Shown one piece after another: positions 19,765 through 20,640 of a DNA stretch of 64,000 nucleotides; position 1 is the first letter of the stretch, and each line of letters begins with the position of its first letter. The position numbers and the translations under genes are program-made. Where the stretch lies: contig OZ220716.1 of assembly GCA_965116795.1 (NCBI GenBank), positions 128,001-192,000 on the forward strand. Reading direction: 5' to 3'. The notes under the pieces are model-generated. The model worked only from the letters and a program-made list of their open reading frames with translations. It ran no database searches and was not told the DNA's origin. The stretch comes from Gammaproteobacteria bacterium. GTDB taxonomy: Bacteria > Pseudomonadota > Gammaproteobacteria > JAJFKG01.

Positions 19765-20640
19765 GTGCGACACGAGGTCGCTTAAGTAATTGTTTGAACT
19801 TTAATTAAACAAAAGGAGGGTCAAACCTATTATTCTGTTAATAGTAACCTACTGTTCCATGCGTTTCTGGTAACGGAGAGGTGTGAAGCGAATAGGACAA
19901 TGTACCCCACCTGTATAGCCAGGTAAACTGAACTTGTGAAAGTGAGGGAAATACTGCAAGCATCATGCGGTTTGGGGGCTAGGTTTGACGGTATGGTTAA
20001 TGTATATGAACTGCTGATAAACGTCGTAACGCTAGACAAGCTAAAGATGCTGACAAGCTTGAACCAAAAGGTGAGTAGCCAGGTTGTTATTGTCTACTTT
20101 AGTAACACGCAGATGTAGAGCTACCGGTGGAGAGGCAGAACCTAACCCGTCATTGTTACTTAAGAGGAACGTGGTAAGCCCGTATTTCTCTTCTTATTTG
20201 AAGAAAGCGAGTTGTAAAGTGAGCCGATGGGAATGCGGGTAAAGGAGGACAGAGAAAGCGAATGCTAATGTGTAATGCGTTAGATAGAGGTTGAAACATC
20301 ATCTCACGCGAAAGCGGGCAGACTTCTGTCTGGTCTCTTATTACGAGAGAATTTGTAGAACTGACATAATGTGGAAAAGCAAATGACAGTAATGATTTAT
20401 TCATTAACTGATGCGTCCACAGCACTAAAATAACATGGAATGCTATCGATTAGCAGAAAGTGTTAATGTATGTAGGTCGGCTGCAAGTGAGTATCGTAAA
20501 GGCGATGTGCTTTCCAAATGGAAAGTGGCAAAACCGGCTTTCATAGAAGGCTTAAAGAGGCTTGAGCTGTATGACGCAAAAGCGTCCTGTGCAGTTCTTA
20601 GGGGGCAGAGCAGGTGGTAACATCTGCTTTGCTACCTGAC
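19765..20640 (+). mobile_element. Group II intron (IIB/CL-like) lacking a functional intron-encoded protein
   Basis: 5' GTGCGACACG. Domain V GAGCTGTATGACGCAAAAGCGTCCTGTGCAGTTC (20564-20597) with AGC triad. Domain VI hairpin with bulged A at 20634 and 3' end ..ACCTGAC. Candidate EBS1 CTACTT (20094-20099) and EBS2 AACGCTAG (20028-20035) pair with the upstream exon. Confidence 0.92.
20383..20504 (+). pseudogene. Remnant of intron reverse transcriptase/maturase N-terminus
   Basis: ATG 20383, then a frameshift into WNAID*QKVLMYVGRLQVSIVKA, matching the RVT_N motif W..IDW......V.RLQ.RIVKA. The RT core is absent before domain V. Confidence 0.8.

Follow-up and report, generated by a model that had tools for sequence, protein, structure and literature searches.

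How does a group II intron that lacks an intact reverse transcriptase (RT) gene come to be inserted in a genome, and what moves it? The question is raised by an 876-nt element in the stretch of gammaproteobacterial DNA that we analysed (64,000 nt, here called the window), which belongs to a host genome assembled as a 2.45-Mb single contig, from an order represented by 3 genomes in the collection. The intron and its parts are as follows:

19765..20640, + strand: ORF-less group II intron, subgroup IIB, CL1-like, 876 nt (genome position G000:C1:147765-148640)
19751..19758, + strand: IBS2, in the 5' exon, pairing with EBS2 at 7/8 positions
19759..19764, + strand: IBS1, in the 5' exon, pairing with EBS1 at 5/6 positions; its 3' end coincides with the upstream gene's stop codon
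19765..20165, + strand: domain I, of the "long" architecture, including the RF02012 match; 3' border approximate
20028..20035, + strand: EBS2, located from the fold and the exon pairing
20094..20099, + strand: EBS1, in a 7-nt hairpin loop
20132, + strand: EBS3 (G), inferred by eye from the alignment to relatives
20170..20326, + strand: domains II and III; borders approximate
20347..20486, + strand: domain IVa patch, which includes the former start codon and is a predicted maturase docking site; borders approximate
20383..20503, + strand: frameshifted stub of the RT N-terminus, with stops at 20431-20433 and 20451-20453
20504..20563, + strand: remnant of the ORF tail and 3' strand of domain IV, resembling the endings of endonuclease-bearing CL1 introns
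20564..20597, + strand: domain V, with AGC triad, AAAA loop and CU bulge
20598..20640, + strand: domain VI, with a bulged A at 20634 and an AC end
20641, + strand: IBS3 (C), at the start of the 3' exon; the 3' exons of all three genomic copies have a C in this place

The intron begins with GTGCG at 19765 and ends with AC at 20640, and these borders are exact because three empty paralogues of a target occupied elsewhere in the genome read straight across the junction. The initial annotation had described a complete ribozyme at this position, and both ends, domain V and the bulged A of domain VI are all present. It had also proposed Rfam models as a check, and two of these match above their gathering thresholds: RF02012 (group-II-D1D4-7) at 19826-19978 with 120 bits (gathering 34) and RF00029 (Intron_gpII) at 20562-20640 with 46.4 bits (gathering 40). 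The element therefore has the hallmarks of a group II intron, namely GUGYG/AY ends, a domain V with its triad and 2-nt bulge, and a domain I-IV scaffold, and the fold of the whole intron reaches a z of -4.8 relative to 20 shuffles. It belongs to subgroup IIB, with EBS1, EBS2 and EBS3 all pairing with the exons; the counts of paired bases that we obtained for EBS1 and EBS2 equal those of the initial annotation, one of the EBS2 pairs being G-U. The AGC triad, AAAA loop and CU bulge reported for domain V likewise appear in our fold. In domain IV the reading frames bear out the reported stub of an RT: it starts with an ATG at 20383, its first piece ends at the stop at 20431-20433, and a later piece in a different frame runs through the second stop to a deletion junction with the ORF tail at approximately 20503. 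No intact RT ORF remains, and one deletion is common to all three copies of the intron that we found in the genome. The RT gene consists of broken stubs in every copy, and the description of the element as non-autonomous was thus well founded.

The genes surrounding the intron are these:

19330..19764, + strand: DUF6362 gene, upstream, intact, ending exactly at the 5' splice site
20656..20916, + strand: AlpA-family gene, downstream, with its start and ribosome site within the 3' exon
20928..22178, - strand: tyrosine integrase, adjoining a tRNA gene
22301-22373: tRNA gene, Ala by anticodon, adjoining the tyrosine integrase

The element around the window copy is prophage-like. The copy is in sense with an operon that includes an AAA_24 ATPase and a RuvC-like protein and that ends at the tyrosine integrase, and it splits no reading frame, its place being after the DUF6362 stop codon and ahead of the AlpA-family ribosome site. 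The operon (window positions 15529-22178) is multicopy in the genome, at 66-87% identity, with paralogues at 315898-320134 and in at least 6 more places. Scanning for promoters and terminators gave results below the shuffle level, repeats near the intron site were uninformative, and the GC skew carried no strand-bias signal (2/4 CL1 introns are co-directional with replication). Elsewhere in the window (25774-30834, - strand) we observed a gene for a 1686-aa protein that has long Pro-Thr tandem repeats and probably a membrane anchor.

The three copies of the intron are located at 147765-148640 (the window copy), 1319487-1320368 and 1444810-1445685 of the genome. They are 99.1-99.9% identical and have the same ends in differing flanks; the window copy differs from the 1444810 copy by 1 substitution and from the 1319487 copy by 2 substitutions and a 6-nt duplication. 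They occupy two unrelated types of target. The 1319487 and 1444810 copies sit at a homologous site in two paralogous prophage-like elements, with 5' flanks 77-82% alike, and the site of the window copy is unrelated to the other two. Three further paralogues of the non-window target have no intron; their sequence continues through the junction, and no target duplication is seen. For the window site itself we found no empty allele, the paralogue at 315898-320134 diverging 44 nt before it.

The exon-binding registers were read from the window copy, so that the two other copies serve as an independent test of them. Summed over EBS1, EBS2 and EBS3, with G-U counted as half and a maximum of 15, the pairing scores of the occupied sites are 12.5, 12 and 12, and those of the empty paralogues, which are weaker in IBS1, are 11, 11 and 9.5. 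A score of at least 12 occurs at 75 of the 4,895,664 strand positions of the genome. No target pairs perfectly, and the two top-scoring sites of the genome (14 and 13.5) are empty. We noticed by eye that the target at 1319470-1319486 and 1444793-1444809, together with the 3' exons, could form a short DNA hairpin whose 3' arm contains the insertion point; the hairpin is possibly incidental to the palindromic EBS2.

Contigs from 8 of the 13 listed sequencing runs contained neither a joint that skips the intron nor a new insertion at an intron border. The 5' junction of the window copy is present in runs X2-X5, and the junctions of the other copies in X5-X7. A candidate new insertion in run X5 was set aside, as its loose ends at 19734 and 20600 map to unrelated parts of the genome and not to intron borders. 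The X5 contig ends connect to sequence near 1218880-type repeats and to 903770, with a depth similar to that of the main copies, and would represent amplification chimeras or a strain rearrangement, chimeras being the likely case.

Near-identical copies, a single shared deletion and insertion at EBS-matched sites point to movement as RNA after the loss of the ORF, and we conclude that this is very probably a real intron that has been mobile since that loss. An intron that moved after losing its gene needs an RT supplied in trans. The genome holds 3 RT genes, one of them CL1-like. It encodes a 518-aa protein with a YADD motif and RVT_N, RVT_1 and GIIM domains, lacks an endonuclease domain, and scores 335 bits against TIGR04416. 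Its best relative of solved structure is 6ME0 (E 1.7e-160; LtrA, 1e-34), which we take to be a T. elongatus CL1 protein. The intact CL1-like intron carrying this gene is at 1323791-1321579, 1.2 kb from the 1319487 copy. The two are arranged tail to tail (G000:C1:1319487-1323791) within one prophage-like element, which has recombinase-like and DUF2924 genes on one side and a methylase-like gene on the other, and the pair could travel together. A profile scan of the genome retrieved only 4 CL1 5' parts, none beyond the three copies and this intact intron.

The other two RT genes were discarded as sources of the helper protein. One, of 457 aa, belongs to an intron of a different class (RF02005) that has passengers of its own. 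The third scores far below the group II cut-off; this stand-alone 368-aa RT (G000:C1:1802622-1806185) is also below all NCBIfam cut-offs. We therefore consider it likely that the resident CL1-like protein is the helper of the ORF-less intron. The initial annotation had offered self-splicing or a maturase borrowed in trans; copies at EBS-matched sites together with an intact related RT favour the borrowed maturase, and protein-free self-splicing would not explain new DNA insertions.

The general view of group II introns is that their RNA and protein evolve together; mixed pairs are usually immobile. To place the passenger relative to its candidate helper, we aligned the 5' parts of 33 introns, consisting of the ORF-less intron, the helper and 31 relatives, with each row covering at least 620 profile positions; loci of the host genome, near-duplicates and two exact duplicates were excluded, and sampling was not neutral, the relatives having been found through the helper protein, the intron DNA and the 5' word of the intron. 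The core of the ORF-less intron is only about 60% like the helper, which ranks 10th-13th among 32 for the core segments. One stretch of domain I comes in two builds, of 54-55 nt (helper 54) vs 65-78 nt (ORF-less intron 75). With this diagnostic indel stretch removed, a branch of 100/99 in the tree of domains I-III still separates the ORF-less intron from the helper, and an AU test of the same region rejects sisterhood of the two cores (p 9e-100). By both the tree and the AU test, the ORF-less intron is not a simple deletion derivative of the helper lineage.

Across the 31 CL1-like relatives (L009-L183) the two builds of domain I fall into clean clades by RNA but are intermingled on the protein tree, with at least 3 forced changes between RNA type and protein tree among 30 relatives (the L174 row is not a real RT). 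Exchange between RNA and ORF thus seems to be recurrent in this CL1 clade.

The affinity of the ORF-less intron is different in domain IVa. For domain IVa and the stub the helper comes first of 32, with 80% identity (next 67%), and a tree of these 165 columns places the two as sisters with 97/93. The affinity switches between 20345 and 20364 (39:96 vs 19:4 informative sites), none of 200 permutations being as extreme, and the switch holds against 8/8 single alternative parents. The stub obtains its best score against the helper among 120 proteins, a set collected with the helper as query and so favouring it, and shares with it the word LTDAS, present in 3/120. Further 3', the stub has the word IVKA, which it shares with the long-type introns L009, L030 and L011 but with only 5/120 proteins. 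The ORF tail, 31% identical to that of the helper, resembles the endings of the endonuclease-bearing L009 and L030. For the 3' part, on the 17 rows with a domain V, the AU test does not reject helper sisterhood (p 0.058).

When the patch is narrowed to its approximately 140 nt (20347-20486), identity to the helper is 80% vs 68%, and the grouping with the helper is unstarred in the tree. In AU tests of this narrow patch, L009, L030 and L174 are not rejected singly (p 0.07, 0.26 and 0.11) and the five long-type partners together give p 0.03. Patch and helper are the top outlier of 496 pairs, with a z of 3.5 (other pairs 3.0-3.1) for patch borders that were chosen on this very pair. Their patch identity is also the highest of the 454 pairs with a core identity below 66% (mean 57%, sd 6). 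As a control, ORF-less introns in two other genomes (G079 and G150) are 95-99% identical to neighbouring introns with ORFs wherever the two could be compared. We consider it probable that recombination brought the patch in from the helper lineage; the comparison suggests a foreign ribozyme grafted with the predicted docking site of the resident maturase.

The patch is predicted to fold like domain IVa of the helper. Its 26 substitutions in 140 columns break 1/44 pairs of a fold predicted from the helper alone, vs a null mean of 9.05, with 0/20000 draws as low. Double-sided change is seen at three pairs (p 0.05), and in one of these it includes the substitution that gave rise to the second stop; this count leaves out two outer double-changed pairs that match the long-type L009. 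The substitutions are spread over codon positions as 10/6/7, which together with the kept pairs indicates that the fold, and not the coding, has been conserved. Among 34 changes, 17 polarise to the branch of the ORF-less intron and 6 to that of the helper, with 11 ambiguous. According to the accessible text of PMC4615759, proteins bind primarily at domain IVa, and Ll.LtrB and aI2 are almost immobile without it; that of PMC10190682 supports the same role in a IIC intron. Selection for folding alone could yield the same conserved pattern.

Decay of the ribozyme, which the initial annotation had offered as an alternative, is disfavoured by several observations. The domain I score of 120 bits is within the range of seven related introns (64-129 bits), and the pairs of domain IV have been kept, as described above. 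Among 24 distinct domain V sequences found behind ORFs of at least 400 aa, the loop is GAAA in 18 and AAAA in 2. The AAAA loop is therefore a tolerated variant and not a sign of decay, since intact relatives carry it too. The bulges of the same 24 are AC in 13, AU in 9 and AA in 2, with no CU. A CU bulge was found in 3/11 short introns vs 0/24 ORF-bearing ones (p 0.025 in a post hoc comparison), and appears from these sequences to be a rare variant.

We searched for a near-identical full-length parent of the ORF-less intron. None was found in the host genome, where the initial annotation had suggested looking for an intact sibling and where only the related CL1 helper, not a parent with the same core, is present. 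Nor was one found in the 3 genomes of the order, in 61 relatives (4 of which match), in 400 genomes of the class (15 match, one unscored), in 33 genome loci, in 120 metagenome loci (of approximately 430 estimated) or in viral contigs, and 0/1465 plasmid records cover 80%.

Ten other short group II introns, of 750-910 nt, turned up among the fetched loci (L060, L079, L092, L110, L111, L117, L129, L174, L182 and L185), two of them with a CU bulge in domain V. ORF-less introns are not rare among the loci sampled here. L185 (G225:C25:1-1360) consists of tandem ORF-less introns, each within domain VI of the preceding one, and our query retrieved no CL1 RT from the 150-contig genome that contains it.

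The host genome itself contains a second family of this kind. An intact intron (L002, G000:C1:1138700-1140660, RF02005) encodes the 457-aa RT (motif YCDD) and is accompanied by five derivatives without an ORF, each approximately 877 nt long:

1346300-1345424, - strand: ORF-less passenger of L002
1435149-1436025: ORF-less passenger of L002
1483670-1484546: ORF-less passenger of L002
1498584-1499460: ORF-less passenger of L002
1257341-1258216: ORF-less passenger of L002

Four of the five are identical, at four sites. They begin with GCGCG, and an RF00029 search misses all of them. This family is about 90% like its own helper throughout. With a second helper and its passengers present, trans mobilisation looks routine in this host.

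On balance we favour the explanation that an ORF-less intron of IIB/CL1 type has spread by reverse splicing with the resident CL1-like RT. Its contact with this protein would be made by the domain IVa segment, which probably stems from the lineage of the helper. The window copy would be transcribed by read-through from the operon, and may be nearly harmless there, lying in sense between a stop codon and the next ribosome site. The helper protein would bind domain IVa, a lariat would form at A20634, and the RNA could then reverse-splice into EBS-matched DNA, where the helper would make cDNA without an endonuclease cleavage step. In the RmInt1 family, cDNA synthesis without endonuclease cleavage is established. 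Against the pairing with this helper stands its divergence, 20% in the patch and 40% in the core; moreover, even among close relatives of RmInt1, heterologous RNA-protein pairs mostly lose mobility (PMC4615759, accessible text). The stronger form of the hypothesis, in which a core of foreign lineage captured the resident domain IVa and so hijacked an RT with which it had never co-evolved, we regard as tentative.

The most serious rival is that an intact chimeric parent, combining a long-type RNA with an N-terminus of the helper lineage, drove the spread of its own deletion derivative and was later lost, or resides on a prophage of other strains, leaving the resident intron as a mere cousin. 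Long-type RNAs with helper-clade proteins do exist (L020, L021 and L023), the conflict between RNA type and protein tree in intact relatives makes an ORF-bearing chimera plausible, paralogous prophage-like elements abound in the genome, and the pair scan gave a similar picture for L010, an intron from the same genus; the 20% divergence of the patch from the resident intron also fits a lost parent. Nevertheless, no such parent was recovered from the genome, the 61 relatives, the 400 class genomes or the 120 metagenome loci. The near-identical copies point to recent spread, the stub has long been without coding constraint, and the ORF tail looks weakly of the endonuclease type rather than the helper type. 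We consider a lost parent, and with it the resident intron as a cousin only, unlikely.

An origin at the DNA level, by homogenisation of intact insertions to the deleted form through gene conversion or by duplication of prophages, with the intron now immobile, would agree with the occupation of a homologous site in two paralogous elements and with the lack of new border insertions in the 8 runs. Yet introns more than 99% alike sit in flanks of 77-82%, with identity stopping at the splice sites, and the copy most similar to that of the window is the one at 1444810, despite their unrelated sites, the two sharing one derived base (1/3 sites informative). The identical ORF-less copies of the second family at four sites also argue against such an origin, which we hold to be improbable. 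Still less credence is given to the idea that the likeness in domain IVa reflects slow, conserved evolution or convergence, with no graft and with a fold kept for ribozyme folding only. The segment is short, its tree support is unstable and it contains words conserved across the family, but a patch identity that tops 454 pairs, the sharp breakpoint and the presence of LTDAS in only 3/120 proteins speak against this idea.

Trans-mobilised ORF-less introns are already known, and the interest here lies in the possible graft of a docking site. The accessible text of PMC2882425 describes how, in Thermosynechococcus elongatus, TeI4 proteins mobilise the ORF-less TeI3 introns in trans; like ours, these introns lack an intact RT ORF, have copies at distinct EBS-matched sites and share the genome with a related intact RT. 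However, according to the same text TeI3 introns are deletion derivatives of the ancestor of their drivers, whose proteins are 84-100% alike, whereas the present core is about 60% like its helper and of another lineage. They number 17 copies, in contrast to three here, where the helper has no endonuclease. RmInt1, RmInt2 and Sr.md.I1 also have an endonuclease-less RT, a domain IVa that contains the start codon and is the predicted primary protein site, and compensatory changes, but they are full-length introns of another class, with no natural ORF-less mosaic among them as far as the accessible text of PMC4615759 goes. The introns of Listeria phage LPJP1 are likewise ORF-less and in a phage context, with a proposed RT intron 40-50% alike in RNA; that proposal rests on co-occurrence, and the accessible text of PMC12350094 describes neither a helper-like IVa patch nor empty sites.

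That RNA and protein histories of group II introns can disagree is stated in the accessible parts of PMC4424553 and PMC13190283, the latter dealing with LAGLIDADG modules and not with a docking-site patch in a protein-less intron. In the accessible text of PMC4424553, exchange between ribozymes and RT classes is judged not extensive, convergence being preferred, and bacterial ORF-less introns are called rare and nearly always found alongside a related RT. Neither a natural domain IVa mosaic nor a domain V with an AAAA loop was reported in the literature searched, which leaves out most subscription papers.

The mosaic makes it testable whether domain IVa alone redirects a maturase, and the second family provides a built-in control of plain deletion derivatives within the same genome. 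The finding bears on targetrons built from mixed parts, and on the way in which many introns came to share a single splicing protein. If a foreign core did capture the resident domain IVa, this domain would be a portable address tag, through which unrelated ribozymes could share a single protein for splicing and mobility.
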